Assembly: GCA_937991785.1 (NCBI GenBank)
Contig: CALKMO010000208.1
Coordinates: 1 to 45,013 of the forward strand
Direction: 5' to 3'
Length of the DNA: 45,013 nucleotides
From: an uncultured bacterium
GTDB lineage: Bacteria > Planctomycetota > SZUA-567 > H5-PLA8 > CALKMO01
Positions 5,536 through 37,347 of this stretch are shown here, one piece after another; the first letter of the stretch is position 1; every line of letters begins with the position of its first letter. The translations under genes were made by a program, and so were the position numbers. Under the pieces are notes generated by a model. The model saw only the letters and a list, made by a program, of their open reading frames with translations, was not told where the DNA came from and did not search any database.

Positions 5536-7851
5536 TTAAGCCCTTTGACTCGGTTCCCCCGCCCCGCGGAATGCGCGCCCGATCTCCTCCATCGCTTCCT
5601 TGAGCTTCAGCTCGTCCTCAGGGCCCGGCACGATGCCGCCGTACCTGGTCCGTTCGAATATGCGGGTGACCTCAGCGACGGGAGCGGCTATAGCGGCCGT
5701 CCGCCTGGCCACGGTGGCCGCGAATTCGGACGGCGTTTGCGAAGGCCCGCGCGCGATTCCGCGGCCGGCGAGCATCGCCAGCAATTCATTGTAGAACCGC
5801 AGGGCCGCCTTTTGTCTCGGATGCATCTTCGAAACGCTTCCGCGCCGATCCCGCCCGCGGCCCGCGAATCGGTAGGTTGCGAGCAGCAGGCAGACGGCGG
5901 CGGCAAGCGCAGCAGCGGCCGCCGGGATCCAGCGGCCTACATACGTCTCCCGTCCGCGGTCGGATCCTATGCCGAGCGCCGATCGCAGCTTCCCGGCCGC
6001 CGCCTCTATAAGCGCCGATTGCGCGGTCGCGTCGTAGCTCAGGACGAAATCCCATGAACGGTCCACCCACCCGCGGGCTACGATTGGACGCTCGCCCGGC
6101 ATCGCCGGAGGAAGATTCTCTCCGGCAAACATCCGCACCGGAGGAACAACTGGGGGCCCGATGCGCCCGATGTCCGGCGTGGGATCGAACCGCACCCACC
6201 CGGTCCCGGCCAGGAATACTTCCGCCCATGCGTGGGCGTCGCGGTTCCTGAATACGTATTCGTCGCGCGAAGCGTCGTACTCGCCCCCGGCCAAGCCCGT
6301 CGCCAGCCTAGCTGGCACGCCGAGCGCACGGCATGACAGAACAAAGGCCGACGCGAACAGCATGCAATGCCCGGAGCGGCACCTTTCGTCCGCTATGAAC
6401 GCCGACACCAAATCGCCGGCGACCGAGGATGTCCATTCGAGATCGAGCGAATAGCGCCACCGGCCCGAATCCCTGAACAGACGCAGGAGCGCCTCGGCCT
6501 TGTCCGCGTCGCTCCTCGCCCCCGAGTCCATGGCCGCCCTGGCCGCCACCGTCTGTGCGGCCGGAGTCAGCGCGGACGCTTCCAGGCAACGTTCCCGTTC
6601 GACGCCTGCGGGAGATGACAGGTCGCCCGTCGGGACAGCGTCTCCCAAGAAATTCGGGGGCAGCAGCGAACGCACCGAATAGCGTTCTCCCATGGATATC
6701 GTCCCGCCATCCCCCGTCCACAACGTGCCGTCGCGGTCGCGGAGCACAGACGGCCACCGTATCGCGACGGCCGGCGCCATGCACAGGAAGTAACCTATGC
6801 CGCCCTGCAGGAGGATCTCGATATCCTGCAGGACTGTCGAATCCTCCGACCACGCCGGAGCCGCCGCGCCGGACAAGACCGCCGTCCATCCGTCGGCCTT
6901 GCCGTCGTCGGCATCCGACACTGCCACGCGGCCCGGCGCCGGCGATTCCCACGCTCCGTTGACATAATCCGAAAAACACAGCCCGCGCAGATAAAGGTTG
7001 CGGATCGAAACCTTATCGGCGGCCTGCCCCGAGAGCTTGAGGGAGAGCGTCTTCCTCGAATCGTACTTCAGCCTGGCGATGCCCCGAAGCGGCGCTCGTT
7101 CGCCCAGACCGGTATCGAAAGCCCATCCAGGCGCCGCTCCGCTCCGCGGGCGCCTCCCTTCCGATACAGTCCGCGTCTCCACGGGCCTTAACATCTCCAC
7201 CCAAGACATGTCGCCCAGCGCCCTTGGTGCGGCCAGGAAGAATACGGCGCCGAGCAGGAGGTCGGCGAGGACGGCCGTCCCCCATAGCGGAACCCACTGG
7301 CGCGCGCATCGCCTATCCAACCTGCCTCCGCCCCCCGCCCCGGCCTTTAGCGATAGGGATATTTCGCCGGAGCGCTCCCAGGCGAGCTTCGCGGCGCTTA
7401 CCGAGGAAAGCAGCAGGAACCACGCGGCGGCGGCCGTCAACAGCACGATCCTCAGGATCAGATCCGGACCGCCGTCCATTCTGGCCGACAGCAGCAGCAG
7501 CGCCATGTTGGCCCATATCGGGACGGCGCTCCCGCGGCGGACGCCGAAGAACGAAACCGCCTGGGAAAGGCATAGTAATCCGCCGAGTTCCTCGGCAAGG
7601 GCCGCGCCGTCGCCGGCCGTCCGGGCGTGCCAGCGGTACAAGAGGATCGGCAAGGCTGCCAGGAGGATGCCTCCCTGAACGGAAGGGCGGAGCGCCCCGA
7701 TCCTACCGGCATCCACGGTGGCGGCGGCCACGCAGGCGCAGATCGCGACGAGGACGGGCCACGCCCACGATCCGCCGGCCATCGAGAAGGCCATCGCCCC
7801 CGAAAATGCCAGCAGGTAATGCGACGCCTTGAAAGTGCGATCCAGGTTCAC
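5536..7851 (-). CDS. transglutaminase-like membrane protein (TgpA-like, DUF3488/DUF4129 architecture)
   Basis: Has a multi-TM N-terminus. The transglutaminase core reads 'GHCMLFASAFVLSCRALGVPARLATG...DAHAWAEVFLAGTGWVRFDPTP' (Cys-His-Asp). A C-terminal TM segment is followed by a DUF4129-like tail. Confidence 0.85.
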   Translation of the reverse strand: MNLDRTFKASHYLLAFSGAMAFSMAGGSWAWPVLVAICACVAAATVDAGRIGALRPSVQGGILLAALPILLYRWHARTAGDGAALAEELGGLLCLSQAVSFFGVRRGSAVPIWANMALLLLSARMDGGPDLILRIVLLTAAAAWFLLLSSVSAAKLAWERSGEISLSLKAGAGGGGRLDRRCARQWVPLWGTAVLADLLLGAVFFLAAPRALGDMSWVEMLRPVETRTVSEGRRPRSGAAPGWAFDTGLGERAPLRGIARLKYDSRKTLSLKLSGQAADKVSIRNLYLRGLCFSDYVNGAWESPAPGRVAVSDADDGKADGWTAVLSGAAAPAWSEDSTVLQDIEILLQGGIGYFLCMAPAVAIRWPSVLRDRDGTLWTGDGGTISMGERYSVRSLLPPNFLGDAVPTGDLSSPAGVERERCLEASALTPAAQTVAARAAMDSGARSDADKAEALLRLFRDSGRWRYSLDLEWTSSVAGDLVSAFIADERCRSGHCMLFASAFVLSCRALGVPARLATGLAGGEYDASRDEYVFRNRDAHAWAEVFLAGTGWVRFDPTPDIGRIGPPVVPPVRMFAGENLPPAMPGERPIVARGWVDRSWDFVLSYDATAQSALIEAAAGKLRSALGIGSDRGRETYVGRWIPAAAAALAAAVCLLLATYRFAGRGRDRRGSVSKMHPRQKAALRFYNELLAMLAGRGIARGPSQTPSEFAATVARRTAAIAAPVAEVTRIFERTRYGGIVPGPEDELKLKEAMEEIGRAFRGAGEPSQRA

Positions 7852-7901
7852 TGTGCCCTTCCCGGCATCCGCCCACGAGAACGGTCAACGGCCGGCCGCC
7901 C

Positions 7902-9173
7902 TTACGGTTCCACGCCCGCCACCTCCGCGCCTTCCTCCCCGTCGGCGAAAAGATCCCTTACGGAGACATCGCTGTCCTCCCTAGATATCCTATGGAAAGT
8001 CGTCGTGAATTCCGGGGAGCCGACTTCGATGATCTTGACGCTATTGTCGGGCGTCGCGTAGCGCGAGAGGTCCAACCCCATGCGTATAGATCCCAGCCCA
8101 ACGACGACGATGTAAGCCCTGCGCAGCGCATCCAAGTCCATCGCCTCGTAAAGCCGCAATAGGTCCTTTTCCGGCGCCGGCTTCAGTTCGGCAAGGCATT
8201 CGAGCAGCACGTCCAGGTTGCGGCGTTCCATGTTGAGATCGACCTGCATAAGGTTCGGCGCGAAGGCGGCCACGTTGACTTCGCACCCCATTCTCACGCA
8301 GTCGCGCGCCAGCGTCGCTACGAACGATACCGCCTGTTCCAGCAGCGCCTCCCCTCTCTGTCCCATCCTCCGCGTGCAGGTATCCAGGCATATGGCGACT
8401 CGCCGCATCTCGGGCCTCTCGAACTCACGAACCATGGTTCTGCCCAGGCGTGCCGATGTGCGCCAATGTATCCACCGCGGATTGTCGCCGGGACGATACT
8501 CCCGTAGTCCCCGGAAATCGTCGTCCTCCCGCGAGGGCCTCGTCCTGGCCATCCTGACAAAAGCCCTCTCCATCTCCACGTATACGCTCCGTTCCACCTC
8601 CCCCAGTCGCGGGTAGACCGTCAGCCGCCCCGGCACATCCAGCCGCGCGGCCGCAGAGAAGACCCCGAAGGGGAAGGTGGTTCTGACGATGGTCTGCCGG
8701 AAGGCATGCACGCCTCTCCGCCGCAGCCGCATCTCGTACCGTACTTTCTCCGAACCGCCGGCGGGGACCCCGGCGGCGAACGCGTGGCCGCGACGCACCC
8801 CCTCGTCGGTCAATCCTTCCTCTATGCGGAGCGCCCCGGCGGGCAGGAAGGAGGAATTAGCGATCGTCAGTGTGACGGCTATGCGATCTCCTGCAAAGAC
8901 GCGATCGGGCAATGACCGGCGCAGCGAAATGCCCCTCACGCACAAGCGTCCGAACGCGGCGCCGACCAGAAGCATCGAAAAAAGGATGGTGCCCAGCAGT
9001 AAGGGAATGTTGCCGAGCCTCGCGCCGAGCGCCACGCATATCAGTGCGGCTGCGAGTAAGGCCCACCCGTTACCGGTCATGCCCCTGGCCATCGCCGCCG
9101 GCAGGGCGGCTGCCCGCAACGCCGGCGCCAAGATGTCTTTCAAAAAGGCTCTGGACGGTGCGTAAGCGGCCAT
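7902..9173 (-). CDS. DUF58 domain-containing protein
   Basis: Carries the DUF58 hallmark 'DDFRGLREYRPGDNPRWIHWRTSARLGRTMVREFE' and two N-terminal TM helices. It sits between moxR and the transglutaminase gene, as in the common operon. Confidence 0.85.
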   Translation of the reverse strand: MAAYAPSRAFLKDILAPALRAAALPAAMARGMTGNGWALLAAALICVALGARLGNIPLLLGTILFSMLLVGAAFGRLCVRGISLRRSLPDRVFAGDRIAVTLTIANSSFLPAGALRIEEGLTDEGVRRGHAFAAGVPAGGSEKVRYEMRLRRRGVHAFRQTIVRTTFPFGVFSAAARLDVPGRLTVYPRLGEVERSVYVEMERAFVRMARTRPSREDDDFRGLREYRPGDNPRWIHWRTSARLGRTMVREFERPEMRRVAICLDTCTRRMGQRGEALLEQAVSFVATLARDCVRMGCEVNVAAFAPNLMQVDLNMERRNLDVLLECLAELKPAPEKDLLRLYEAMDLDALRRAYIVVVGLGSIRMGLDLSRYATPDNSVKIIEVGSPEFTTTFHRISREDSDVSVRDLFADGEEGAEVAGVEP

Positions 9174-9219
9174 TTTTTCCGCCCGGCCCGCCGCCGCTTG
9201 GGATGGGGAATCCCCCGCG

Positions 9220-10194
9220 TCACAGCGGCACGGGAACCTCTTCCACTATCTCCTGTACTATCTTGCGAGCGTCACGCCGCCCGCCGCTCAAGGCCCCCTT
9301 CTCGACGACGCGGTGCGCCAGCACGGCCACCGCCATACGCTTTATATCGTCCGGCAGGCAGAAGTCGCGGCCTTCCGCGAAGGCCAGCGCCTGAGCGGCC
9401 CTGTAGAGCATCAGGCAGCCGCGCGGGGAGACACCAAGCGCCAGCGCCTTCGTCCCGCGGGTCTTGTTCGCAATCTCTAGGATATAGTTGGCCAGCGCTG
9501 CATCAACCTTAACGCCCCTCACAGCCTCCTGCAGGCGGAGCACCTCGCCGGCGTCCAGGACCGGATCCAGCGTCTTATCGAGAGGCACGCCGGACCTGTG
9601 CGCCTCCAGCATCCTAAGCTCGGAGTCCCTGTCGGGGTACCCTATCGAGATCTTAGCAAGGAACCTGTCGAGCTGCGCCTCTGGGAGAGGATATGTTCCG
9701 GCGTATTCTATGGGGTTTTCGGTAGCGAGCACCATGAACGGCTCGGCCAGCTTGTAGGTCCGGCCGTCCACCGACACCTGGAAATCGTTCATGGCTTCCA
9801 GTAGGGCGCTTTGCGTCCTCGGCGTGGTGCGGTTGATCTCGTCGGCGAGCACGACATTCGAGAATATCGGCCCCCTATGGAAGACGAACTCCCCGGTCCG
9901 CTGATCGTAGACGGACACGCCTATCAGGTCGGACGGCAGCAGGTCAGGCGTGAACTGTATCCTGCGGAACTCGCAGTTGATCGAAAGGGCCAGTGCGTGC
10001 GCCAGCGTGGTCTTGCCGACGCCGGGAACATCCTCTATCAGGACGTGTCCCCGAGCCAGCAGAACCGCGACGACCTGCTTGACCGCCTCATTCTTCCCCA
10101 GTATGGCGCGCTCGATATTCTCTATCAGCCGGGCGACCTTCGCGGCCGCCTCCGGCAGGATTTCCCGCGTAGCCTTAAGTCCTTCCTGCGGCAA
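9220..10194 (-). CDS. MoxR-family AAA+ ATPase
   Basis: Walker A 'EDVPGVGKTTLAHALA' and Walker B 'VVLADEINR'. I trimmed the track ORF (9220..10269) to the TTG at 10194 because a GAGGAGG Shine-Dalgarno (10201-10207) lies 6 nt upstream. This gives a typical ~324-aa MoxR. Confidence 0.85.
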   Translation of the reverse strand: MPQEGLKATREILPEAAAKVARLIENIERAILGKNEAVKQVVAVLLARGHVLIEDVPGVGKTTLAHALALSINCEFRRIQFTPDLLPSDLIGVSVYDQRTGEFVFHRGPIFSNVVLADEINRTTPRTQSALLEAMNDFQVSVDGRTYKLAEPFMVLATENPIEYAGTYPLPEAQLDRFLAKISIGYPDRDSELRMLEAHRSGVPLDKTLDPVLDAGEVLRLQEAVRGVKVDAALANYILEIANKTRGTKALALGVSPRGCLMLYRAAQALAFAEGRDFCLPDDIKRMAVAVLAHRVVEKGALSGGRRDARKIVQEIVEEVPVPL

Positions 10195-10859
10195 GACAAA
10201 CCTCCTCGCATTCGCACCAGGCGCCGCACGCCACCGAATAAATGTTAGCACGAGGCGCCGACGTGGCAAGGATGCATCCGGCAGCCCGGGAGGATTTGAA
10301 GTCCTGCTTTTTCATGTCGGTGCGCAGTATTCGTTCGCAGGCCGGAGGAGGTTCGCATTTTAGCAGAGAGGTCTTTTGCAAACCCTGAAAAATAGCAAGC
10401 CAGGGATCGAACCCGACAAGCAATTTTTCAGCGGACAGAGAATAGTTGTCTGGGCGCCAGAGATATCTCGCGGCCAAGCCCGTCCCGGCGAATATGCGCC
10501 AGCGCCCTGTAGACGGCGAAGGATGAATAGGATTAAACCCGGCGTGCCGGCGGAGGATGCGCATCCCCTAGAGGGCGCGTAACAGGCAAGGCCTTCCTTA
10601 GCCGCCGCCATCCTATATGCTTGACTATGCATCGAGGGGGCGCTAAATGGTGCGTCACGCGTCGCGCGCAGTCGACGGGATCGCTTCGAACGATGCAAGG
10701 CCGAAAGGACTTGAGCTCGAATCGGAAGAGGCCGGTGGGAGGGCTTCTGTCGAATTGCATTGCGTCCTCCTTCCCGTTCGGCCGGAGCTCGAAGATGGAG
10801 GCGGCGGTTAGTCATGGGCGATCGGCGGTGGAGAAAACAGCCTGGGAGGACATAAGAGA

Positions 10860-11735
10860 ATGAGCACGATACGACACATCAGGGTCGAGGCCGAATATCT
10901 GCCTGAGGCGTACGAAAAAGCGATACTGGCCGTGTGGGACCACGGGACGCCGATGAAGACCGAGTATGACAGGATCGGCGACCCGGAGTCGCGCGATGCG
11001 CACGTGACGGTGGCGGTAAAAAATCCCTTCGCAGTTCCCCGGTATCATCTGAACATCCCCGGAGGGCCGGCCGATCTGCAGACATACATCATGGAAGTGA
11101 TAGACGGCATACACGATCACTGGATGGATCCCGCTTCCCCGAACAAGTGGAAGTACACCTATCACGAGAGACTGTTCGCCTACCCGGTCATCGAAGCCGA
11201 CGGCCGGATGCGCAGGATCAACCAGATTGAAAGCATCTGCCGCAGGCTGGCCGAATGCCCCCACACTCGGCGGGCGCAGGCAGCCACTTGGCGGCCGGGT
11301 TACGACAACGAGATAGACGATCCGCCGTGCCTCCAGCGCATATGGTGCCGCCTGGTCCCGAAGGCGTGCGGGGACGGGCCTGGCGCGAAATCGTACGCGC
11401 TTCAGATGCATACTTGCTGGCGCAGCCGCGACCTGTACAAGGCGTGGTTTTTCAACGTCGTGGCGATGACCGAGCTCCAAGCGTACATCTCGAATCGAAT
11501 ATCGGAGCTCGGCGGCTTCGACGTTTCGGTCGGCGAATACCACGACACGGCCGACAGCCTCCACATCTACGGGTCCTACTTCGGGGAGGCGCTGCCGAGA
11601 ATAGAGAAGATGCGGGATGGGAATTGGCGCGCCCGGTCGGTCGACGGAGAGAAGATGGATATCTGGCGCGAGATAATGGCCGAGCAAAGGGCCGCGCTGC
11701 TCGCCGAAGCCGAAAAGGAAGGGCGAAAGCTCTGA
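10860..11735 (+). CDS. thymidylate synthase-fold enzyme, archaeal-type ThyA-like
   Basis: Catalytic Cys motif 'DDPPCLQRIW', phosphate-binding 'HTRRAQAATW', 'CWRSRDLYKAWFFNVVAM' (the RSxD..FN motif with Asn retained, suggesting dUMP) and 'DSLHIYG'. A GGGAGGA RBS lies upstream of the ATG. Confidence 0.75.
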   Translation: MSTIRHIRVEAEYLPEAYEKAILAVWDHGTPMKTEYDRIGDPESRDAHVTVAVKNPFAVPRYHLNIPGGPADLQTYIMEVIDGIHDHWMDPASPNKWKYTYHERLFAYPVIEADGRMRRINQIESICRRLAECPHTRRAQAATWRPGYDNEIDDPPCLQRIWCRLVPKACGDGPGAKSYALQMHTCWRSRDLYKAWFFNVVAMTELQAYISNRISELGGFDVSVGEYHDTADSLHIYGSYFGEALPRIEKMRDGNWRARSVDGEKMDIWREIMAEQRAALLAEAEKEGRKL

Positions 11736-11841
11736 CCGGCAGCGTGCGCCCGGAACCAGGAAACGGACGCGCGGCATCGGCCCGGAGGAGACGAAGGCGG
11801 GCCTAAGGACTACCGATGGAGCGGGAGACATTGAGCGACGG

Positions 11842-12666
11842 ATGCGACAAGAGGCCGACATACGACTGGTGGCCCTCGACCTTGACGGCACACTGCTGAA
11901 CGGCCGGAAGGAAATCCCGCAGGCCAATATCGAGGCGCTGAGAGAATGCGAGAGGCGCGGCATACGCATCGTGCTGGCATCCGGACGCATGACGCCCTCG
12001 ATGGAGCGCCCGGCGGATGCGCTCGGCGCCGATACGTTCCTCATAAGCTACAACGGCGCCGTGATATGCGCATCGCGGGCCGACGGACGCGGGAGGCTGG
12101 AACATAGGCCCCTTCCGGCCGAGACGGCCGCCGAACTGATACGTTTCGGCCTCGCTCGGAGATACATGTTCAACTTCTACCACGAGGACAGACTGTACGG
12201 TCCGTCCGCATCCGACCTGCGGCGCTTCGCCGATATCTACTCGTCGCGCACCGGCGCGGCCTACGAGTTTCTGGACGACTTCTCGCGGATGGACGGCATC
12301 TCCCCAAGCAAATTCCTCTACGTGACCGAGCCGGATGAAAGGGAATGTCTCGTGAAGGAGCTGCTTCCGATATACGGCGGGCGGTGCACTATTGTGCGTA
12401 CGGATCCGGAGTATCTGGAATTTCTCGGCCCCGGCGTTGACAAAGGGACCGCGCTCGCGCGCCTGCTCGGCATTCTCGGGCTGCGTAAGGAGCACGCTAT
12501 GGCCATCGGTGACGGAGACAACGACGTCCCTTTGCTTTCCGCCGCCGGGACGCCCGTGGCCATGGCCAACGCTTCGCCGCCGTGCAAGGCCGCCGCCATC
12601 TGGATCACCGGCCGCGACAACGACGAAGGCGGAGTGGCGGAAGCGCTGGAGCGCTTCTTGTTTTGA
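11842..12666 (+). CDS. Cof-type HAD-IIB family hydrolase (sugar/nucleotide phosphatase-like)
   Basis: HAD motif I 'LVALDLDGTLL', then 'LASGR' and motif IV 'AIGDGDNDVPLL'. Confidence 0.85.
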   Translation: MRQEADIRLVALDLDGTLLNGRKEIPQANIEALRECERRGIRIVLASGRMTPSMERPADALGADTFLISYNGAVICASRADGRGRLEHRPLPAETAAELIRFGLARRYMFNFYHEDRLYGPSASDLRRFADIYSSRTGAAYEFLDDFSRMDGISPSKFLYVTEPDERECLVKELLPIYGGRCTIVRTDPEYLEFLGPGVDKGTALARLLGILGLRKEHAMAIGDGDNDVPLLSAAGTPVAMANASPPCKAAAIWITGRDNDEGGVAEALERFLF

Positions 12667-13005
12667 CACGCCGGGCCGGTCGCCATATATAGTTTTGCCG
12701 ATGAGTCGTTCGACGGTCTTCTCTTGGCACCCTTAGGGGAGCCGTGGCACGGTAGGATGTTGCGGCGGGACGGGAGCCGGCGACCGCAGGCGGGCGGTCG
12801 GACCGCGGGATCGGGTCCGGTTGCGGCTACATTGGAAAAACTTGCGCGCGCATCCTGGCGCGTCCAGAGAGCCGGCGGTCGCCACCCAGTGCCCGATCGC
12901 CGCTTCGGGATATCGCGGCCGCACGGCAAGCAGCACAGGGGAGCGGCCCAAGTCTTCGAAAAGACGCGGGCGGCCGTAAGCGGGGGGGCGGGATCGCAGA
13001 CTGAT

Positions 13006-14007
13006 ATGACCAGGGACGCGGATAAAGCCTCTGCGGACGGGAAGGCCGCGGCTGCAGGGAGACTGAGAGGCGAGGCGGAAGAAGCCGCCGTGCGCGACGG
13101 CACTGCGGACGGCACTTCCCAGTGGATCGAAGCGGCTGCCCGCTACAAGGCCGTGCTGATCGGCGTGCCGGTGATCTCGGCGCTTTCAGTGGTGGCGGTA
13201 GCGCTCGGCCGAATCTACGTCGAATCCGTAGAGATGGATGCTTGGACGCGGTATGAAAAGGCTTTGAGCGTCGAGGGCGAACCGATCAAAAAGTTGGAGG
13301 CCGTGGAGAGTCTCCTGAGATCGCTGGAATCCCGCGACGTGTTCCCCTTCGCCGTCATGCACCTGGCCAGAGGCTACTACGACGAGGCAATGAAAAAGCC
13401 GCCGAACTCCCCCGAGCGCGCCGCTATGCTCGACAAAGCCCTGGCATGGTACGAGACGTTCAACAGCCGGGCCGGGAACCACGTACTGGCCCCTTTGGGT
13501 CTCGAGGGTGAGGGGCTGGTCAAAGAGGAGAAAGGCGATTTGGACGGCGCAATAGCCGTGTTGTCGAAGGCTCATGCCGCCTACGCCACGCACTGGATCG
13601 CCCCGAAACTGTTCTACGACCTCGGCAGATGCCATTACCTTCGTTACCTGGAAAAGGGCAGGCCGGAAGACATGGATGAAGCACGCCGCTGGCTGGGCAG
13701 GGCGCGCGAGTTCACCATCGAGAGGGAGATTTCGCATCCTTCATTCAGGGGAAGGAGTTTCCCGTTCTTATGGAGGCGGGACGTTGATTTCCTGATGGCC
13801 GTCATTTCGAAACCGGGCCCGGCCATACCGGACGGCAAGGCGCCTCCGGAGAGGAAAAAGGAAGGCGGCAAGCCTGATGAATCTCCCGCTCCAGCTGGCG
13901 AGGGTAAAACGCTCGGCGCAGGCGCGGATCCTTCGAAAAGCGCGGAACCAGGTGGCAAATCATCCGCCGGCCAGGACGCGGTAGGAGGATCGGGAGAAGG
14001 CAAGTAG
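13006..14007 (+). CDS. membrane-anchored TPR-like repeat protein with a Lys/Pro/Gly-rich tail
   Basis: I chose the ATG at 13006 inside track ORF 12724..14007. It has a single TM segment 'AVLIGVPVISALSVVAVALG' followed by helical repeat-like sequence ('ALAWYETF', 'GDLDGAIAVLSKA', 'YDLGRCHYLRY'). I recognise no specific family. Confidence 0.5.
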   Translation: MTRDADKASADGKAAAAGRLRGEAEEAAVRDGTADGTSQWIEAAARYKAVLIGVPVISALSVVAVALGRIYVESVEMDAWTRYEKALSVEGEPIKKLEAVESLLRSLESRDVFPFAVMHLARGYYDEAMKKPPNSPERAAMLDKALAWYETFNSRAGNHVLAPLGLEGEGLVKEEKGDLDGAIAVLSKAHAAYATHWIAPKLFYDLGRCHYLRYLEKGRPEDMDEARRWLGRAREFTIEREISHPSFRGRSFPFLWRRDVDFLMAVISKPGPAIPDGKAPPERKKEGGKPDESPAPAGEGKTLGAGADPSKSAEPGGKSSAGQDAVGGSGEGK

Positions 14008-17359: not shown

Positions 17360-19006
17360 TCACGGCCAGCGTATTCCCAGTTCCGCAATCCCGATCGCGG
17401 CCAGGTTGAAATCTCGCCGGACGCTATCTGCCTCCTCGGCGGTCCGCGTCAACACAAGCACCGCTTCCGGCGCTAAGGAAGGAAGGACGATATCGCCACG
17501 CCGACGCCACTCCTTTTCCCGCGTCCAGTCGCAGTCCGGAGGCCGGTGCTTCTGGAACAGAAACCGGCGATCTTCAGGCAAGGCGCCGAAACAGTCCTCG
17601 GGCAGATATAGGACCGGCTCGATTCCAGCGGCCTCGGCAGCTTCGCGCCGTATGCATACCGCGTAAGGCTCGAACGACCATCTGACCAAGTGCGGGCACC
17701 AGCCCGCGACCTCCGCCGCTTCCCATGGCGACAGCGCCGTCAGCGACACCGCCGCCTCGCCCCCGCGTATCAATCTGCCGGAGGCCCGTATGCGGCCTTC
17801 GGCGAGTATGCGCCTGAGCGTATCCATCCCGTTTCTCGGCCTGCCGAGCGCGGCCAGATCGCGTATGTACTCGGCCCGGCTCTGCCCAGGGAACGGTCCG
17901 CGGAAGGCGCGGGTATAGTGCGCGAGGAAATCCCATCCGCGGCGAAGCTCGCCGGGCGACGGCACCGTAGATAAAAGGCCGCTTGCAGCACTCCGCGGGC
18001 GCGGTTCCGAAGAAGAACCCGCTTCTTCCGGCGAACCGTCCTCCCAGGATTCGGATGCCGGACTTCCCAAAAGAGCCTCTCCCGGCGGCTTCATCCGGCC
18101 TGATTCCGCAGCCCCATGCGGTCTTGCGGCGTCAAATTTGGATTCGGCGGCCGCTACCGGTCCGGCGTATGTTGCCGATCCCGGCGAACCGCCGGTCCGA
18201 AGCGACCAGACTGCCGAGGCGATACGCGCGCCTCGCTTCTCTAGCGTATCCCTGACCTTTGCCGGCAGGCATCCGCAAGGCAATATTTCGACAGGCATTC
18301 CGGCGGCCAGCCGCGCCAGCGCGAGGCGTTCCATACGCCCTCCGGACCTGACGGAGACTGCGACGGCCATCGAGGCTATTCCGGCGGCCAGGGCGTCGCG
18401 CGTCGCCATCGAGACCTCCTTGGGAAGGCGCGGGCTTCCAGGAGGAAATACGGATATCCACAGAGTCTTCCCGTAGGTGTAGAGTCCGCGGTTTCTATCG
18501 TAGAACGCCGCACGCCGCGTCTCTTCCAGCATCCCAGGCACGGGCCCTTCTAGCGCGACTATCATAGCCGCGCCCGCCTCGGCCGCCCCCTGCGCCGCCG
18601 CTTCGTGCAGGTCCAGCCCCAATCCGGCTACTATGACCCGGCCGGTTTCAGACGCTCCGAACACCAGCGCCCGCGTAGCCAAAAGCCAATCCAGTCCGCC
18701 GCGCACGCCGCGCGTCCGCCGCGAATTCATAGCGAATACGGAAGGCGCTTTCAGCAAATCCAGCGGCCCTTCGCAAAAAAGCGGCAGCCCTCGAAGCCGA
18801 TCGTCGAGCGATCCCGGACCGGCGGGATATTCCGGATCTGAATGAGTAAGGAGACGGACGCCGGGAGGCAACACCGGAGCAGCCGAACTCCAGATTGGGT
18901 TCCCAAACGGCGAAACGCCGGACTTCGCTCTATCCAAAGGCGACGGAGAAGAGCCTCCAGGAGAAAGGCTCTCGAACTTGCAACCATCTCCGTCTTTCGG
19001 AGCCAT
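17360..19006 (-). CDS. divergent DprA/Smf-like (SLOG-fold) domain fused to an uncharacterised ~210-aa C-terminal domain
   Basis: N-terminal half is co-linear with the DprA Rossmann core: 'DPEYPAG', 'VFAMNSRRTRG', 'VIVAGLGLDLHEAAAQGA' (compare SGLARGIDAAAH), 'MIVALEGP' and 'ISVFPPGSPRLPKEVSMATRDALAAGIASMAVAVSVRSGG'. This is followed by a Ser/Pro/Gly/Ala-rich linker. The C-terminal domain has 'AHYTRAF', 'LRRILAEGRIRASG', 'AVSLT', 'EPYAVCIRREAAEAAGIEPVLY' and 'REKEWRRRGDIVL'. Confidence 0.6.
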   Translation of the reverse strand: MAPKDGDGCKFESLSPGGSSPSPLDRAKSGVSPFGNPIWSSAAPVLPPGVRLLTHSDPEYPAGPGSLDDRLRGLPLFCEGPLDLLKAPSVFAMNSRRTRGVRGGLDWLLATRALVFGASETGRVIVAGLGLDLHEAAAQGAAEAGAAMIVALEGPVPGMLEETRRAAFYDRNRGLYTYGKTLWISVFPPGSPRLPKEVSMATRDALAAGIASMAVAVSVRSGGRMERLALARLAAGMPVEILPCGCLPAKVRDTLEKRGARIASAVWSLRTGGSPGSATYAGPVAAAESKFDAARPHGAAESGRMKPPGEALLGSPASESWEDGSPEEAGSSSEPRPRSAASGLLSTVPSPGELRRGWDFLAHYTRAFRGPFPGQSRAEYIRDLAALGRPRNGMDTLRRILAEGRIRASGRLIRGGEAAVSLTALSPWEAAEVAGWCPHLVRWSFEPYAVCIRREAAEAAGIEPVLYLPEDCFGALPEDRRFLFQKHRPPDCDWTREKEWRRRGDIVLPSLAPEAVLVLTRTAEEADSVRRDFNLAAIGIAELGIRWP

Positions 19007-26424: not shown

Positions 26425-27801
26425 TCATGTCGGTTCCGCCTCGAATCCAGCCCTGCGCACTGCGGCGACAATCGCCGCGATTTCTATCCGCACGCCCCGA
26501 ACCCTCGCCATGCCCTTGCCGATATCCACGCCGACCGATTCGACGCCTGGACAAGCCGCCAGGGCGTTGCGGACGGACTCGGCGCAATGCCCGCAAGTCA
26601 TTCCCCATATTTTCAGCTCGATCGTTCGGGCCGCTCCGCCGCTATCCTCCGGCGAGGCGCTGGCTGCGATGGATGGCAGCATCATCGCGAGCCCGCCACC
26701 GTCTCCAACCGCTCCTCCGGCCGAAAACTTTCGCAGTATGGCGCCCGGCATCGCGGCGGCGAGCAGAATCGCAAACAGGACGGCAGCCGATACATGGTTG
26801 ACCCAAGATGGAAGGACTTCCGCCGGGCAGCAGATATCGGCGACCGCGGCGGCGCCGCCGGAAAGGATAGCGTCCATAAACGCTCCTGAAGCCAGGGCTA
26901 CGGCCGCTAGAACCGCCAGGTAGACCGCGGCGCCGCGCCTGCCGAGGAGCCTTAGCGCCGCCGAGATGGTAGCCGCGTTCGTGGCTGGCCCTGCGATAAG
27001 GAACACGAGCGCCGCGCCAGGAGAGACTCCCTTGGCCACGAGCGCCGCCGCGACGGGAATCGCGCCTGTAGCGCATACGTACATGGGGATGGCCAGCAAC
27101 ATAACCGCCAACATCCCTGCGAGCCCGCCGCCGGCGAAGGCTGCGAAAAGATTGTCGGGCACCAGCGCCGATATGACTCCAGCCGCCGCAAGCCCGACCA
27201 GGAGAGGCAGCGCCATGTCCCGGGGAATCGTAACGAAACCGTACTTTAGCGCGCGGATGAAACGGCCGCCTCCGCCTCCGGCATTAGAGGAACAACATGC
27301 GGCCGGCGTCGAACATCCCGTCCGGCCCCCAGCGCCGGCGTCCGGTTCGCCGGTTCCGATCCCGCCGTACGGCTCGCCGCTCCTACTCTTATCCGCCGCA
27401 GCTACGGCAGCCCCGCACAAAAGACCGCTTGCGAGAGCGACCAGAGGACGAACGATCGCGAAAACCGGCCCCATCATGCCGTAAGTAGCAAGTATGCTGT
27501 CGGCGCCGGTCTGAGGAGTCGAGGCGAGGAAGGCGGCTACGGCGCCCTTTCCGGCACCCTGTCTGCGCAAACCGGCCGCCACCGGGATTACGCCGCACGA
27601 ACACAGAGGCAGCGGGATGCCGAAAAGCGTCGCCTTGAGTATCGCCATCGGCCCGCGGCCGCCCAAGTGCCTGCCGACCCAAGCCGGCGGGATCAGCACA
27701 GAAAGAAGCCCGGCAGCAAAAAAGCCCAACAAAAGGTAAGGAGCCATCCGGCCCGTCATGAGCCAAGCGGACGACAATATATCCAGGAGGGTTTCGATCA
27801 T
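26425..27801 (-). CDS. DUF318/SO_0444-type metal (Cu/Zn-like) efflux permease with a C-terminal HMA metal-binding domain
   Basis: Two permease half-repeats each carry a Cys motif ('PLPLCSCGVIPVAAGL' and 'PMYVCATGAIPVAAAL'). The C-terminal HMA domain reads 'WGMTCGHCAESVRNAL'. Confidence 0.8.
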   Translation of the reverse strand: MIETLLDILSSAWLMTGRMAPYLLLGFFAAGLLSVLIPPAWVGRHLGGRGPMAILKATLFGIPLPLCSCGVIPVAAGLRRQGAGKGAVAAFLASTPQTGADSILATYGMMGPVFAIVRPLVALASGLLCGAAVAAADKSRSGEPYGGIGTGEPDAGAGGRTGCSTPAACCSSNAGGGGGRFIRALKYGFVTIPRDMALPLLVGLAAAGVISALVPDNLFAAFAGGGLAGMLAVMLLAIPMYVCATGAIPVAAALVAKGVSPGAALVFLIAGPATNAATISAALRLLGRRGAAVYLAVLAAVALASGAFMDAILSGGAAAVADICCPAEVLPSWVNHVSAAVLFAILLAAAMPGAILRKFSAGGAVGDGGGLAMMLPSIAASASPEDSGGAARTIELKIWGMTCGHCAESVRNALAACPGVESVGVDIGKGMARVRGVRIEIAAIVAAVRRAGFEAEPT

Positions 27802-28790
27802 TGCGCACCCCCAGCCGCCGCGGCATTATTATTGAAAAAACGAGCGGGGGGAGCCTGAAGCGCCGGCCCGGCGTTGGACGGTGAGGGGTCTTTCCAAAGA
27901 AGGCCGCGCCCAGACATCCCCCCCGCTCCCCGCTTGTGTAAAACCCTGGGATCTTCCCAGACCACGTCGCGACGTATCCCGATCCGCGTGAGGACGAAAT
28001 CGTAGCGCACGGGATCGTCCGGCCGAATCCTGCGGAACGCGCCGGTTATCTCGACCGCGGCCCTGCCGTCAGCGGCGGCACGCTTCGTAAGCCCAAGCTC
28101 CGCCGCGATGCGGTGCATGTGCGTATCCACCGGCACGATCAACATCTCCGGGCCGATAGACGTCCATCCGCCCGGATCCACCTCGTCCCTACGCACCATC
28201 CACCTGAAGAACAAGTTCAGCCGCTTGCATGCGCTACCCGATTCGGGCGACGGAAGCAACCCTTCGTGCCAGCGCGCTCCGTAATCCTCCAGCCGCCGGA
28301 CGAAGGCCGACGCGGCGCCCAAGATATCCGCATCGCCCGCACGAAGGCCCGCCGCCAGGAACCGCTCAAGCGATCCGTGCTTCCGCATCGCGCGCCCGGC
28401 AGCGTACAGGAGCGCCGCGATATCGTCACCGGACGTAAAGCGATGCCTTACGCCTCGCAGTACGGAGCTCAGGCGCCGCAGGCTCGCCCGCGCCGCGAAT
28501 TCCGCCGGGGCGTCCCCGAGTCTGCCGAGCACATCCGAGGCGTTCCGCAATATCTGGGCGACGCGGCCGTAGGCGAGGGAAGAGGCGATGAGCCCGACGA
28601 TCTCCCTGTCGCGCAAATCCTTATACGCGTACAGAAACTGCAGAGGATCGGGCGCGACGTACTCGCGCCGGTTGTAGCGCGCGTACAGCCCTTCCAGCGA
28701 AGCGGCCAGATCGCCATCCGCCGACCTGCGGCTTATGCCCATAGCCGCGCGCTCCTCTGCGCGTTTCCTTTCGGCCGCCATCCCAGCCAT
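27798..28790 (-). CDS. TIGR02757 (DUF2400) family protein
   Basis: 'DPLQFLYAYKDLRDREIVGLIASSLAYGRVAQIL' and 'VPVDTHMHRIA', consistent with my recollection of TIGR02757. Its TGA overlaps the permease ATG (ATGA at 27798-27801). Confidence 0.65.
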   Translation of the reverse strand: MAGMAAERKRAEERAAMGISRRSADGDLAASLEGLYARYNRREYVAPDPLQFLYAYKDLRDREIVGLIASSLAYGRVAQILRNASDVLGRLGDAPAEFAARASLRRLSSVLRGVRHRFTSGDDIAALLYAAGRAMRKHGSLERFLAAGLRAGDADILGAASAFVRRLEDYGARWHEGLLPSPESGSACKRLNLFFRWMVRRDEVDPGGWTSIGPEMLIVPVDTHMHRIAAELGLTKRAAADGRAAVEITGAFRRIRPDDPVRYDFVLTRIGIRRDVVWEDPRVLHKRGAGGMSGRGLLWKDPSPSNAGPALQAPPARFFNNNAAAAGGAQ

Positions 28791-29697: not shown

Positions 29698-32238
29698 CTA
29701 CTTCGCCGGAGGCTTGGACTTCCACCAGGCCCACTGGAGGATGTGGCCGGCTCGAAGCGCCATCGCCGATGTTCGGCTCCAGGTGCTGTTGTCGGGCAGC
29801 CATACGGGAGGGCACTTGGATTCAGGAAAGCTCTGCGCAAACAGGTCGGCCGCCGTCGCGAGATACTCGGCGATGCCGATCCTGGCCCCCACGTAGGCAA
29901 ACAGGTCGGCCAGGAAAAGCGGGGCCTCGAAGAAACTGTCCGGGAAAGGCTTCGCGCAGCCGTCCGACAGAAGCTTGAACACCTTCTCGTCGCCGGTATG
30001 CCTGTGCAGCTCGCACAGAGAGGCTATGGCGTAACAGTAGTTCATGTCCTCCTTCTGGTAGTCCTGGCCTCGTATCTGGTCGTTCGGGTTATGCAGGTGC
30101 GGGCCGTGGACCTTCCAGATCGCGGAGATGTTGGTATTGAAAAGGTTGAGGGCATCGTCGAGCCACTTCCTGTCGGCGGTAAGATCGTACAGGGCGCACC
30201 AGGACGCCACGGCCCATGCGTTGGCCGCTACGTTTCCCTGGGGGCCTCCCCACGGCTTAGTTTTGGCGATGTGCTCCCATCCGGCCCTGAGCCCCTCGCC
30301 GTTCCGCAGGCAGCATTCCATCGCCTTCGGCTCCCCGGTAAGCATGTAGTAGAGCGCCACGCCGGCAATCCAGTTGGTCGAGACTCCCGGATACCGGTAG
30401 AGGCGATAACAATGGAAGGACGGAAAGTTATAGTCGCCGCGCTGAAGCCCGCGGGTCTCCGGTGGATCCCTGTCGGACCAGTTCTGGTCAACGTCTATGC
30501 GATGCCGCGCCATAGCCGTGCCGATCCGCAGAAAGGCCGGATCGCCGAACCTCATGGCGTTGATAAGCATTATCCACGTCCAATCGTAATGCAGGCACAC
30601 GGGGCCCCTGCCTGGGACCGGAAGGTCGCCGTAGTCCATCCAGCCGAACCAGTACGTCGAGTCAGAAACGTAACTGACTATGGATTCCGACGGCGTCTCG
30701 ACAGCCTTGGGCAACCCGCTCGGCGAAGCGGGATCGGCGGCGCTGCGGGCCATCCGGCACCAGGCCGACAGCTTGGCGTTGCAGTCCTTGTCGGCGGTTC
30801 GAACCTCCGGCGGGGCGAACAGACCCGGCGCCGCCTCCGTCGAGGCGTAATATTCCGCGGAGGCCAGCGCCGCCGCAGGGGCGGAAAGCTCCGCCCACGT
30901 CTCCTTCCCGTCCCTGCCCGAGAAATCCAGAATGAATTCGTATCCCTTGTGCACGCCCCCGGGCAGGAAGTACAAGCCGTCCTTCGGTAGATTCTGCAGC
31001 GTCCTGTCGAACAACCCGCCGCCCTTCAGGTCCGGCCTGGCCCTCGGCCACTGTCCTTCCCTCGGCCACAGCCACAGGCGAAGCGTCCCGCCGTCAAGCT
31101 CGATCGCCTTCTCATAGTTCTGCCAGAAGTCGCGAACTGCCGCCGTCAGCGTTCCGCCATCCCCCTTCAGCGCTACGACGCCCTCCGTCCGTTCGCCCCT
31201 TTTCAGCTCTTTGCCATCCGCGGATATCACGTACTCGAAGTCCTTCCATGTATAGAACGGTCCTTTCTTGTACTGAACCTTCTCCTGCCCCCTAGCCATG
31301 TGGCAGAACTGGTAAACCTTGAACGATCCCGTGCCTTCCGCTCCCTCGCATGTGGCCGCGACCTTGCCGCCGAGATCCGGCGCGAGCTCTACCGCCATGC
31401 CGTCGAACGCGAACCACTCGATGTTCGGCGATGTGCCGCCTTCGTCCTTAGCCGCGTAATAGCCCATCGCGCCGTGGTTCTCCAGCCATAGATGGATCTT
31501 CACGAACCTGCGGCCGGCGAAGGCGCTTATCCGCGCGGTATATCCCAGAAGATCTTTGTGGACGCCGGGGAATTTCCCCCTGGCGAGGACGGTGGCGCGC
31601 ATGGGTCCGGCCTGCTCCACCCTTAACTCTTCCGGAGGCCCCGCCACGGCCTCTCCGCCGTCCTCCTTCCAGAGCACCAGACCCCTGCCGGATGGGGCGA
31701 GTTTTTCTTTGCCGTCAACCTTCAGAGATGCGAAGAGCCCGGGCTTCCCGCCGCCGATCGCAAACTCCATAGGCCCGCTCGATACCTTGGCTCCGCCGGC
31801 CCCCGCGGTCTCGACCCTGACCGGCGATGGAGGCGGGGGATTGCCCCCCGAATCCGATACGACCAGTTCGGCCCTGCCGCCTGCAGGGATGTCGAGCTGC
31901 GCGTCCATCAGCGCCCAGCGCGCCGACCCGTCGTCCCAGGAGACCGTTTTTACGAACTGCGCGGGTATCGTTTTCCCGCCGAGCCTTGCGGCCAGCCTGG
32001 AGACGTCCTTCACAGCGCCCTTTGGGAACGGCACGCCCATCGTGACGACCGCGGGCGACCGCGCTACCTTCTCGGTCTCGACGACGGAGAGCCGCGTCTC
32101 GAAAGCTCCGGCTGCCGCGGAGGCCAGGAACGCCGCCGCCGCGATAATTGCAGCGACCGTCGCCGCCGATGTCGCCGGTGCTGCCGAAGCGGCTGCCGAA
32201 TCCACGGAAAATCCCTTGGACCGCAACGGGATATGCAT
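29698..32238 (-). CDS. large secreted protein, possibly a YetA/PcRGLX-like (RIFT-barrel + alpha/alpha-toroid) polysaccharide lyase/hydrolase-like enzyme
   Basis: 846-aa ORF with an Ala-rich hydrophobic leader. The N-terminal 'VVTMGVPFPKGAV...GKTIPAQFVKTVSWDDGSARWALMDAQL' resembles the N-terminal barrel of YetA-type proteins. The family assignment is from memory only. Confidence 0.45.
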   Translation of the reverse strand: MHIPLRSKGFSVDSAAASAAPATSAATVAAIIAAAAFLASAAAGAFETRLSVVETEKVARSPAVVTMGVPFPKGAVKDVSRLAARLGGKTIPAQFVKTVSWDDGSARWALMDAQLDIPAGGRAELVVSDSGGNPPPPSPVRVETAGAGGAKVSSGPMEFAIGGGKPGLFASLKVDGKEKLAPSGRGLVLWKEDGGEAVAGPPEELRVEQAGPMRATVLARGKFPGVHKDLLGYTARISAFAGRRFVKIHLWLENHGAMGYYAAKDEGGTSPNIEWFAFDGMAVELAPDLGGKVAATCEGAEGTGSFKVYQFCHMARGQEKVQYKKGPFYTWKDFEYVISADGKELKRGERTEGVVALKGDGGTLTAAVRDFWQNYEKAIELDGGTLRLWLWPREGQWPRARPDLKGGGLFDRTLQNLPKDGLYFLPGGVHKGYEFILDFSGRDGKETWAELSAPAAALASAEYYASTEAAPGLFAPPEVRTADKDCNAKLSAWCRMARSAADPASPSGLPKAVETPSESIVSYVSDSTYWFGWMDYGDLPVPGRGPVCLHYDWTWIMLINAMRFGDPAFLRIGTAMARHRIDVDQNWSDRDPPETRGLQRGDYNFPSFHCYRLYRYPGVSTNWIAGVALYYMLTGEPKAMECCLRNGEGLRAGWEHIAKTKPWGGPQGNVAANAWAVASWCALYDLTADRKWLDDALNLFNTNISAIWKVHGPHLHNPNDQIRGQDYQKEDMNYCYAIASLCELHRHTGDEKVFKLLSDGCAKPFPDSFFEAPLFLADLFAYVGARIGIAEYLATAADLFAQSFPESKCPPVWLPDNSTWSRTSAMALRAGHILQWAWWKSKPPAK

Positions 32239-32291
32239 CGAAAGTTCTCCGAATCCTGCCGCTTCCGCGGCACCCCAAACCCAGCGTCCGC

Positions 32292-35232: not shown

Positions 35233-37347
35233 TCAACCGTCAAGCACCTCGCGCACCGCCGACGCCAGGCTGTAGGCTGAAAACGGTTTCTGTAGCAGGC
35301 GCATGCCCTTTTCTATTTGACCGTCGCGGAAGAGCACGTCTGCCGAGTACCCGGACATGTACAGCACCTTGATGCCGGGCACGATCCGCGCGATTTTTCC
35401 CATGAGTTCCCTGCCATCCATGCCGGGCATGATAATATCTGTAAGCAGAAGATGGATCTGCCCGACGTGGCCGGAGACGATCGCGAGGGCCTCTTCGGGC
35501 GACCGTGCGGCGAGCACGGCGTACCCGAGGCCGGCGAGGATGCTTTCGCCAAGCTTCAATATCGCATCCTCGTCCTCGACGAGCAGTACGGTTTCGCCGC
35601 CTCCGCGGGGAATGGGGAGAGCTTCTTCCGGACGCTTCCCATCTTCCCCGCCGCCTGCCGCCTCCCCTCTGAACCGCGGGAGATAGACCTTGACGCTCGT
35701 ACCCCTTCCCGGCTCGCTGTAAACGTTGATCGTCCCGCCGTTCTGCTTCACGACGCCGTAGACTATCGCCAACCCAAGCCCCGTTCCCTTCCCGGGCGCC
35801 TTGGTCGAGTAGAAAGGTTCGAAAAGATGCTCCATCGCCTCCTTGCTCATACCTCTGCCGTCGTCGCTTACCGAAAGGACGACGTATTCGCCCGGCGCGG
35901 CGTCCGGATGCGCAGCGCAATAGGCTTCATCCAGCGCGGCGTTCGAAGATGCCACGGCTATAGTGCCGCCGCCGGTTATCGCGTCCCTGGCGTTTATAAG
36001 AAGGTTGGCCAATATCTGATCCACGTGCGCAGGGTCTATCCTGACCTTGCCTGCTTCCGACCCCGGGGTCCAGGACAGGCGGATGTTCTCTCCGATAAGC
36101 CTTCTGAACATCCGGATCCCTTCGCCCACGGCCGCGTTCAGGTCGAGCACCCTGGGATTGGCCGGCTGTCTGCGGGCGAAAGCAAGCAGCTGGCGCGTCA
36201 GATCCGCCGAACGTTCGCAAGCCTTCAATATCTCGGCCAGCCTCGCCCGGCATGGATGGTCCTCTCTCAGCTCGGCCGCGGCCATCTCGGCGTTGCCCAT
36301 AATGATCGTCAGCATGTTGTTGAAATCGTGCGCAACCCCGCCGGCCAGCCTCCCGATCGCCTCCAGTTTGGCCGCCTGCCGCAGCCTCGCGTCCAGCTTC
36401 TCCCGCTCAGCCTCGGCCCTCTTCCGCTCGGATATATTCCGCACGATCGCCTGCAGCATCATCTCGCCGCCGATCTCGATCCGGTTCAGGCTGACCTCCG
36501 CGGGGAACGGCGTCCCGTCAAGTCTGCTGTGCTCCCATTCGAAAAACTGCGGCTGACCTTCCAGTGCCAACCGTATCTTCTCCAGAGCCTTCTCTTCCGA
36601 CGGTCGCCCGTCAGGCTGCGTAGGCGGAGAGAAGCGGTACGGGGGCGCGCCGATTATTTCTTCCCGCGAGGCTCCGAACATTTCCAGCGTCTTGGCGTTG
36701 CAGTCCACAAACCGATCCGCTTTCATCAGCATTATCGCGTCGTTGGCCGTTTCAAAAAGCAGGCGGTATTTGGCCTTGCTTTCGCCCAACGCCCGCCGGT
36801 CATGCTCCATGCGTTCGCCGGCGGCTGTCAAGAGTTGCGCGCCCGATGCAAGGGCCTTCGTGCGAGCGGAGACCTGACGCCTCAAGATGAAGCACCACAA
36901 AAGAGCGGAAATAAGCGCAGCCGCGCAGACGATGGTCCCCGCCTTCCACCAGGGCGGCCGTGCCGGCTCTCTCTCTTCGGAAGTCCATTTCTTCAGGGAC
37001 CGATGGTAGATCGAATCCGGAGCTTTCTTGATGTCGGCCAGATGCCTGTCTATGGCGGCCAGCAGATGCGCCCTGCCACGCTTCGGAGCGGCGAAAAACA
37101 GCCGCGTAGGGTATAAGATCGCAGCGGCTTCCTCGAGCCCGGCCCCGCGCGCCCGAGCCGCGCCGAAGAATCGGTTGAGCGCCGCCGCGTCGGCCTCGCC
37201 GCGCATCGCCGCATCGAGAACCGAGCGGTAATCCGGCAACACAACCAGCTTCGGCCGCTCGCCGGGGTCGAAAAACGAACCGCCGAGGACCTCTTCTTGT
37301 ATCGAACCTTCCAGGACCGCAATGCGTTTCCCGCCAAGGTCCCTCAA
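35233..37347 (-). CDS. hybrid sensor histidine kinase/response regulator (C-lobe of SBP_bac_3 sensor, TM, PAS, HisKA, HATPase_c, REC); 5' part displaced by a frameshift
   Basis: '[17 protein letters not shown]' is the second lobe of a family-3 solute-binding domain. A TM segment '[17 protein letters not shown]' and a PAS domain follow. H-box '[13 protein letters not shown]', 'GTGLGL', and REC 'LLVEDEDA...[13 protein letters not shown]'. The annotated start is a TTG at 37347. Confidence 0.85.

Follow-up and report, generated by a model that had tools for sequence, protein, structure and literature searches.

Gene Structure and Domain Architecture

The subject of this analysis is a gene for a two-module protein in a 45,013-nucleotide stretch of DNA from an uncultured bacterium of the Planctomycetota (NCBI GenBank assembly GCA_937991785.1, contig CALKMO010000208.1, positions 1 to 45,013 of the forward strand), the whole of which is called the window here. 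The gene is a complete coding sequence on the minus strand (17360..19006), as judged from the list of open reading frames (ORFs), its homologs and an AlphaFold2 model; it runs uninterrupted from an ATG start over 548 amino acids (aa) to the stop codon and encodes a DprA-like module fused to a module that resembles ADP-ribosyltransferases (ARTs). Four segments can be distinguished, all given on the minus strand: a poorly conserved N-terminal leader of low model confidence (aa 1-48, 18863..19006; predicted local distance difference test, pLDDT, of 37-51), a DprA-like Rossmann (SLOG) domain delimited by Pfam, the family profile and Foldseek (aa 49-271, 18194..18862), a linker predicted to be disordered from its pLDDT values and composition (aa 272-345, 17972..18193), and a C-terminal ART-fold domain of the AbiGi/DarT-like type, assigned by a domain model, Foldseek and sub-threshold AbiGi matches (aa 346-548, 17363..17971). 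The full-length model reached a mean pLDDT of 81 and a predicted template modelling score (pTM) of 0.79. The fusion ORF is real, far beyond what chance would produce, because it has about 2,300 cluster-level relatives and because both domains fold with pLDDT values above 90. The ORF and its two-module build, as set out in a preliminary description of the locus, are borne out by the ORF list, the homologs and the model. A comparison of the whole 548-aa protein with NCBIfam gave no match.

The linker comprises 74 residues, 74% of which are Ser, Pro, Gly, Ala or Glu, has pLDDT values below 50 at aa 276-333 and is about twice as long as the family median. The Ser/Pro/Gly/Ala-rich linker of the preliminary description is therefore present, at a length of about 75 rather than 90 residues.

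The public gene call for this locus (P0001, 465 aa; start region at window 18755-19006, minus strand) starts at a TTG, codon 84 of the longer ORF. Initiation at this TTG would delete a family-conserved P-L-F-x-x-G segment together with two confidently modelled strands and, because both precede the TTG, the longer ORF is the better gene model. Agreement with the family is better for the ATG at 19006, or for initiation around codon 45, than for TTG codon 84; in the window protein, 94 residues precede S95, as compared with a family median of 125.

The N-Terminal DprA-Like Module

Pfam family PF02481 (DprA/Smf) matched aa 49-219 of the window protein with an E-value of 0.0028 and 17.3 bits, and matched 14 of 32 family members at E ≤1, with a best value of 7.2e-9. 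A profile of the 118-sequence family alignment retrieved the PDB entries 5mll, 4ljr, 4ljk, 3uqz, 8zva and 9vzo (the latter ShosA) at E-values of 2e-4 to 1.6e-3, and its alignments with DprA structures were collinear across ~200 residues. In Foldseek searches with the AlphaFold2 model, Streptococcus pneumoniae DprA (3uqz) ranked first (E 3.7e-9, probability 1.0), followed for the N-terminal module by ShosA (8zva; E 2.5e-8) and then by 3maj, 4ljk/4ljr and 5mll, while other SLOG folds, namely Moco carrier protein, LOG and ThsA, appeared at E-values of 4.5e-4 to 1e-2. The module has a DprA-type Rossmann (SLOG) fold that is modelled with pLDDT >90 across aa 49-245. The co-linearity of residues ~55-260 with DprA/Smf that had been proposed from the sequence is accordingly weak by sequence score and strong by structure.

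Likeness to DprA proper (3uqz, 4ljk/4ljr, 3maj) includes, beyond the fold, the pre-Rossmann 'YP...P.LF..G' element within the collinear region, the R-D motif and, of motif 1, the S-R pair with N in place of G, and a strongly basic character (median isoelectric point of 9.7 across the family). Two signatures, G-[STA]-R and [FLY]-x-x-R-[ND], have been described for binding of single-stranded DNA (ssDNA) by DprA, and in Helicobacter pylori DprA the exchanges R52E and R143E reduced ssDNA affinity ~315-fold and 173-fold, respectively (PMC3950713). The equivalent of motif 1 is S95-R96 (18719..18724, minus strand), which is aligned with G-T-R52 of H. pylori DprA and reads N-S-R in the window protein; both residues are present in all 118 family sequences. 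The equivalent of motif 2 is R203-D204 (18395..18400, minus strand), aligned with R143-N144 of the H. pylori protein and embedded in M-A-T-R-D. R203 is conserved in 117 and D204 in all 118 sequences, and the first motif position is mostly M or L, M being hydrophobic but outside the strict [FLY] definition. The preliminary description had read ATRD as a replacement of the RNR segment, which needs correction: ATRD represents no loss of a DprA signature, because it fits the published ssDNA-binding motif and because R203-D204 is conserved. As for GLGLDLH, the other departure pointed out there, most family members do have a divergent G-x-x-G-I-D region, but G130-L131-D132 of the window copy can still be aligned with the canonical G-I-D. 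The LOG-type nucleotide motif PGGxGTxxE is absent, the family having R-x-G-G-N-M at this site (motif comparison according to PMC3950713).

The window copy further differs from DprA/Smf in that it has no confident SAM domain and in that the winged-helix/DML1 domain is replaced by the linker and the ART-like domain, in agreement with the earlier statement that the canonical C-terminal winged helix has been exchanged. Judging from its fold and sequence features, the N-terminal module is a divergent DprA/SLOG domain that probably binds ssDNA. The view that it is not the competence DprA is plausible, because the domain has diverged far from PF02481.

The C-Terminal ART-Like Module

Because DprA matches swamped the Foldseek list obtained with the full-length model, the C-terminal domain was modelled separately (aa 346-548; pLDDT 94.8, pTM 0.90). 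Nine of the best 12 PDB matches of this model belong to the ART superfamily: DarT with bound nicotinamide adenine dinucleotide (NAD+) ranked first (7omw; E 3.4e-3, probability 0.97, template modelling (TM) score 0.43), three further DarT structures followed at ranks 2-4 (7omx, 7omv, 7omy), DarTG and the rifampin ADP-ribosyltransferase Arr occupied ranks 5 and 6, and KptA/Tpt1 was found three times at lower ranks; pertussis toxin S1 appeared further down the list. A viral structure library gave similarly weak matches, among them a phage RNA 2'-phosphotransferase. The domain has the ART fold with its split β-sheet core, at modest scores, and the order of its elements, with two helices between β1 and β2 and one between β2 and β3, equals that in the published description of the DarT core (PMC9967889). 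Besides size (~200 aa) and strand/helix order, the domain shares with DarT (7omv-7omy), the thymidine- or guanosine-specific ssDNA ADP-ribosyltransferase of DarTG, an H-x-T at β1, conserved arginines and a glutamate at β5. The two differ in that sequence identity is only 10-13% and in that the family has ExE where DarT has a single E; the Pfam model for DarT (PF14487) did not match any of 39 C-terminal domains even at E ≤10, i.e. the likeness is structural only.

At the level of sequence profiles, AbiGi (PF10899) was the only recurrent Pfam family, matching 8 of the 39 members at E ≤10 with a best value of 0.0074, and in PADLOC, an independent library, the AbiGi model PDLC02331 was again the only recurrent named match (4 of 39, best E 0.0038). 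AbiGi is a component of lactococcal AbiG that shares with the fusion family an R / S-x-S(T) / ExE-type pattern; a recent survey places it, as a relative of DUF2971 and DarT, in the R-S-E clade of ART-like families (PMC12522546). Single-profile matches of the C-terminal domain in the PDB, such as that to human cytomegalovirus UL131A, were weak and were rejected as spurious chance hits. The tentative suggestion of an 'AbiGi-like or ADP-ribosyltransferase-like' domain in the preliminary description agrees with the evidence on both counts, with AbiGi as the sole recurrent profile match and with ARTs, headed by DarT, as the leading structures. Of the checks proposed there, Foldseek on an AlphaFold model returned DprA for the N-terminal and DarT and other ARTs for the C-terminal module, while Pfam gave nothing for the C-terminal residues of the window protein itself and sub-threshold AbiGi matches for its relatives.

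Candidates for all three catalytic ART motifs (I, H or R; II, Y or S-x-S; III, E or [QE]-x-E) are found, by order and strand position. Candidate motif I is H363-Y-T365-R366 (17909..17920, minus strand) at the end of β1, which may represent the NAD-binding H-x-T or provide the R of R-S-E. The family reads H-[YF]-T-R here, with H363 in all 118 sequences and T365 and R366 in 117 each; in DarT, H13-I-T15 holds the adenosine ribose and the nicotinamide (PMC9967889). Candidate motif II, of the S-x-S/T type, is S421-L-T423 (17738..17746, minus strand) on strand β2. Position 421 is S in 94 and C in 22 of the 118 sequences and position 423 is T in 102 and S in 16, and a motif II of the form S-x-S/C-x-S has been reported for an AbiGi-related family (PMC12522546). 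Candidate motif III, ExE with the putative catalytic glutamate, is E497-K-E499-W-R501 (17504..17518, minus strand) in the loop leading into β5 (strand 499-503 in the model); E497, E499 and R501 are invariant and W500 is conserved in 115 of 118. The C-terminal domain contains nine conserved basic positions and 31 columns with at least 90% conservation, as compared with 9 such columns in the N-terminal domain. The sequence elements highlighted in the preliminary description, HYT(R), LRRIL..G.IRAS, EPYAV...G..PVLY and E.EWR, are all present and represent the most conserved columns of the family. With individually modest scores, assignment of the C-terminal module to the ART fold, with the matching motif pattern, is well supported, and the residue equivalences are putative.

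Family Size and Distribution

A word-indexed (k-mer) search with the whole protein returned six relatives of 32-33% identity with the same two-module layout. The impression of a tiny family was a sensitivity artefact, as revealed by an exhaustive HMMER search with the C-domain profile, which retrieved 2,309 cluster representatives at E ≤1e-3, among them 1,240 below 1e-30. The relatives are mostly 500-560 aa in length with the domain at the C-terminus, and nearly all have the same architecture. Short database proteins that seem to represent standalone C-terminal domains mostly come from contigs below 3 kb and look like fragments. At three loci on long-read contigs of metagenome-assembled genomes (MAGs), termed L058, L069 and L074, the fusion gene is broken up into two to four adjoining ORFs, an effect best ascribed to assembly frameshifts rather than to separate genes for the domains.

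In a scan of one genome per species with a 7-sequence alignment as query, at least 244 species-level genomes were found to encode the family. Main carriers are Thermodesulfobacteriota (Syntrophobacteraceae, Desulfomonilaceae and Syntrophaceae, including the cultured Desulfacinum hydrothermale and D. infernum), and further carriers belong to Planctomycetota, Zixibacteria, Nitrospirota and some other MAG lineages. Among 2.9 million viral contigs, no family member was found. All named entries of the family bear the label 'hypothetical protein'; precomputed Pfam domains are missing throughout. The survey of the C-terminal domain that had been called for has thereby yielded a large family, and the neighborhoods described below are core-chromosomal. 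In the literature searched, no fusion of DprA with DarT, AbiGi or another ART is described, although a mention in the founding SLOG literature is possible. The architecture is new, built from known folds, and defines a large unannotated family.

Genomic Context

Transcribed in the same direction as cydB, the fusion gene begins 132 bp downstream of it, preceded by a same-strand run that includes cydA and genes for rubrerythrin, a ferritin-like protein, AhpC/redoxin and rhodanese; this is the cydAB/oxidative-stress run at whose tail the preliminary description had correctly placed the gene. At its 3' end, the fusion gene faces a convergent amidohydrolase gene. The closest named relative of the CydA encoded next to it comes from a Planctomycetota MAG (89% identity over a partial sequence), which tentatively points to a planctomycetal source. 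Scanning of the whole window revealed no tRNA, Rfam match, transposase or recognizable defense gene.

For comparison, ORFs were called in 82 related loci and then clustered, with non-recurrent neighbors being only partly annotated. There is no universal neighbor across these loci. About a quarter of them show a fixed order, with a divergent comEC, a gene for a RodZ-like helix-turn-helix protein, a small ORF, the fusion gene, a prepilin peptidase (A24) gene and pstSCAB, an arrangement confined to Desulfomonilaceae, Syntrophaceae and allied MAGs. Of the 82 loci, 24 carry comEC, 25 the RodZ-like gene, 19 the small ORF and 23 the prepilin peptidase gene; comEC, RodZ-like, prepilin peptidase and PstS assignments were confirmed by Pfam and the other pst genes were called from sequence. 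In other clades the gene lies near ychF, a Ser/Thr kinase gene, or ftsZ/ftsQ/murB/murC. Since it is kept in a syntenic position across related lineages, the fusion gene is consistent with a vertically inherited chromosomal gene rather than a mobile defense cassette. The comEC/prepilin-peptidase linkage hints at internalized DNA in some lineages, or may instead reflect inherited gene order. An apparent tandem paralog downstream (a 'T+ T+' pattern) was discarded, as it resulted from the prepilin peptidase being chained into the cluster and from frameshift-split genes in long-read MAGs.

The small ORF of the conserved arrangement encodes ~116 aa without a Pfam match, lies directly upstream on the same strand in the 19 loci (e.g. 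L076:6384-6734) and is absent from the window. Its product could be a functional partner, for example a regulator or an antidote. A macrodomain partner of the DarG type was found neither among the recurrent neighbors in the 82 loci, which were mostly clustered rather than annotated, nor in the flanks of the window gene (amidohydrolase, cydB). Likewise, no recurrent neighbor in the 82 loci and no gene in the window qualifies as an AbiGii partner or as a partner toxin of the ShosTA/PsyrTA type, and no defense island or mobile element is evident at the window locus or the related loci.

Proposed Function and Alternatives

We favor a reading in which an ssDNA-binding, divergent DprA module is connected by the flexible linker to a catalytically competent ART of the AbiGi/DarT branch, and assign it a probability of roughly one in two. 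The DprA module would dock the protein on ssDNA, be it internalized, replicative or repair-associated, and the tethered ART would use NAD+ to ADP-ribosylate the docked strand, as DarT does. A less likely target would be a protein residing on ssDNA, for instance SSB or RecA, the latter known as a partner of DprA; DNA is the most economical candidate substrate because the closest solved ART, DarT, is itself ssDNA-specific. By analogy, the two modules would also fit thematically, in that this ART acts on ssDNA and the module fused to the ART-like domain here is a predicted ssDNA binder. What the data show directly are the folds of the domains, the conserved motifs, how large and how widely spread the family is and which genes surround it; that the protein binds ssDNA, that it is catalytically active and, most of all, what it modifies are our inference.

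To our knowledge, only a few enzymes are able to ADP-ribosylate DNA, namely DarT1/2, members of the pierisin/Scabin group and, on DNA ends, PARPs; the bacterial ones have so far been seen as toxins. If active on DNA, the fusion protein would bring ADP-ribosylation of DNA or DNA-associated targets to natural transformation or to the everyday DNA metabolism of bacteria, and for AbiGi-like domains a substrate could be proposed and tested; more than 2,000 clusters now carried as 'hypothetical protein' would obtain a family name and a domain model. A more far-reaching version, in which many anaerobes use chromosomal DNA ADP-ribosylation coupled to ssDNA handling outside of toxin-antitoxin (TA) systems, with base ADP-ribosylation serving as a recombination checkpoint or barrier or as a regulator of RecA loading and with no macrodomain antidote, we regard as unlikely at this stage.

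Several observations weigh against the proposed ssDNA-directed ART. The 17.3 bits of the window protein fall short of the PF02481 gathering threshold (29.6 bits), and the first position of motif 1 is N in 94 of the 118 family sequences, including the window protein, where DprA has G. The ART scores are weak (Foldseek E 3e-3, TM 0.43), the window's own C-terminal domain has no significant match in any library and none to AbiGi, and the AbiGi gathering threshold is not reached by any of the matching members. Equivalence of the motifs with those of DarT is putative, being drawn from their order and strand position, and residue 391 of the window protein (17836-17838, minus strand) is Arg where at least 90% of the 118 sequences have His. 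An ART that modifies DNA should presumably require an antidote, for example a DarG-like macrodomain, and none was seen to recur. The window's own locus has no competence-related neighbors, and the comEC/pilD linkage is limited to related lineages and may mirror the preserved gene order of the chromosomal core rather than a functional tie.

The His at position 391 sits in the segment 'A.HTAFDTL' between β1 and β2 of the ART-like domain, and Arg at this position is common to a few close relatives of the window protein.

Among the alternatives, the one that survives best is a fused TA or abortive-infection protein, with the DprA-like module either sensing phage ssDNA or serving as an antitoxin in cis and the AbiGi-like ART as a toxin released upon infection; we consider it rather unlikely, and the single-polypeptide sensor-effector of a conflict system envisaged in the preliminary description finds no support in the gene's context. 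ShosA and PsyrA demonstrate that TA and defense pairs can employ DprA-like modules, and both AbiGi and DarT act in conflicts, the former belonging to a lactococcal Abi system and the latter being a TA toxin used in phage defense. The DprA-like antitoxin ShosA came second among the structural matches and was also retrieved by sequence profile (9vzo), PADLOC returned faint matches to PsyrA and AbiGi, and in one locus a ParE toxin gene lies two genes upstream. ShosA of ShosTA and PsyrA of PsyrTA resemble the fusion protein in that a divergent DprA fold for ssDNA binding, a predicted property in the fusion protein, is teamed with a partner for nucleotide or ribosyl transfer; however, this partner (a phosphoribosyltransferase or a RecQ-like helicase) is encoded by a separate gene, whereas the ART is fused in cis here, and the fusion gene has no defense context. 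PADLOC gave no significant match for any model, the PsyrA hit having an E-value of only 0.042 and ShosA being without a match. DarTG is a two-gene TA locus with the DarG macrodomain, and AbiGi is found in plasmid and defense-island contexts. In contrast, the fusion gene has no such recurrent partner and resides in a chromosomal core: the window is housekeeping chromosome free of mobile or defense genes, the recurrent comEC, rodZ-like, pilD, pstSCAB, ychF and ftsZ/murBC genes indicate stable core synteny and not a variable island, retention of this synteny across related lineages fits vertical inheritance, and no family member was found on the viral contigs. The presence of the DprA ssDNA-motif residues in place of the LOG nucleotide motif further argues against a conflict-system sensor.

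Less likely again is that the protein serves as these lineages' own recombination-mediator DprA, with the C-terminal domain as a non-catalytic substitute for the winged helix or DML1 in DNA or RecA binding or in oligomerization. Retention of the DprA fold and of the key residues of both ssDNA motifs, the comEC and prepilin peptidase neighbors in about a quarter of the sampled loci and the known variability of DprA C-terminal domains (PMC3950713) are in line with this role. However, the C-terminal domain is the more conserved half of the protein, and its invariant residues coincide with what an ART active site should contain (H, [SC]-x-[TS], ExE); because these catalytic-type residues are invariant, a non-catalytic domain is disfavored. 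In addition, the N-terminal domain, at 17 bits, diverges from PF02481 far beyond ordinary DprA orthologs and thus suggests a specialized paralog.

The least likely of the alternatives is a nucleotide-centred SLOG-ART pair acting without DNA, in which the SLOG domain binds or processes a nucleotide derived from NAD+ or ADP-ribose and allosterically controls the ART, or vice versa, with a protein or small molecule as target: several members of the SLOG superfamily, to which DprA belongs, bind nucleotides, LOG, Moco carrier protein and ThsA are among the structural matches, and ART and SLOG domains both occur in NAD+/ADP-ribose biochemistry (PMC7824862), but the E-values of DprA proper are 5-7 orders of magnitude better than those of the other SLOG families, which does not place the domain with the ThsA/LOG-type nucleotide sensors, the domain is highly basic, and a nucleotide-sensing role is disfavored because the invariant residues of the DprA-specific ssDNA motifs are retained where the LOG-type motif is missing.

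Other Features of the Window

Beyond the surroundings of the fusion gene, the window contains hypD/hypE, hemN, an RNase H gene, a MoxR-DUF58-transglutaminase operon, a hybrid histidine kinase gene and glycoside hydrolase genes. G+C content is lowered to 0.49-0.57 at 38001-41000, relative to ~0.63 elsewhere; this region has few convincing ORFs besides that of a metallophosphoesterase (39149-39928, plus strand), and neither a tRNA nor an Rfam match. Three putative ORFs have no Pfam match at E ≤1e-3, namely 2008-4287 (minus strand, 759 aa), 10812-12044 (minus strand, 410 aa) and 12724-14007 (plus strand, 427 aa). The MoxR-DUF58-transglutaminase set (5536-10269, minus strand) consists of a MoxR-type AAA_3 ATPase, a DUF58 protein and a transglutaminase-like/DUF4129 protein encoded in a row. 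At 26425-28790 (minus strand), a gene for an ArsP-type permease with a fused C-terminal heavy-metal-associated (HMA) domain is followed by one for a DUF2400 protein. Finally, two adjacent genes at 29698-35045 (minus strand) encode very large proteins, 846 and 917 aa long, whose glycoside hydrolase domains are PcRGLX-like and GH123-like, and this pair is adjoined by the gene for the PAS hybrid histidine kinase at 35233-37347.

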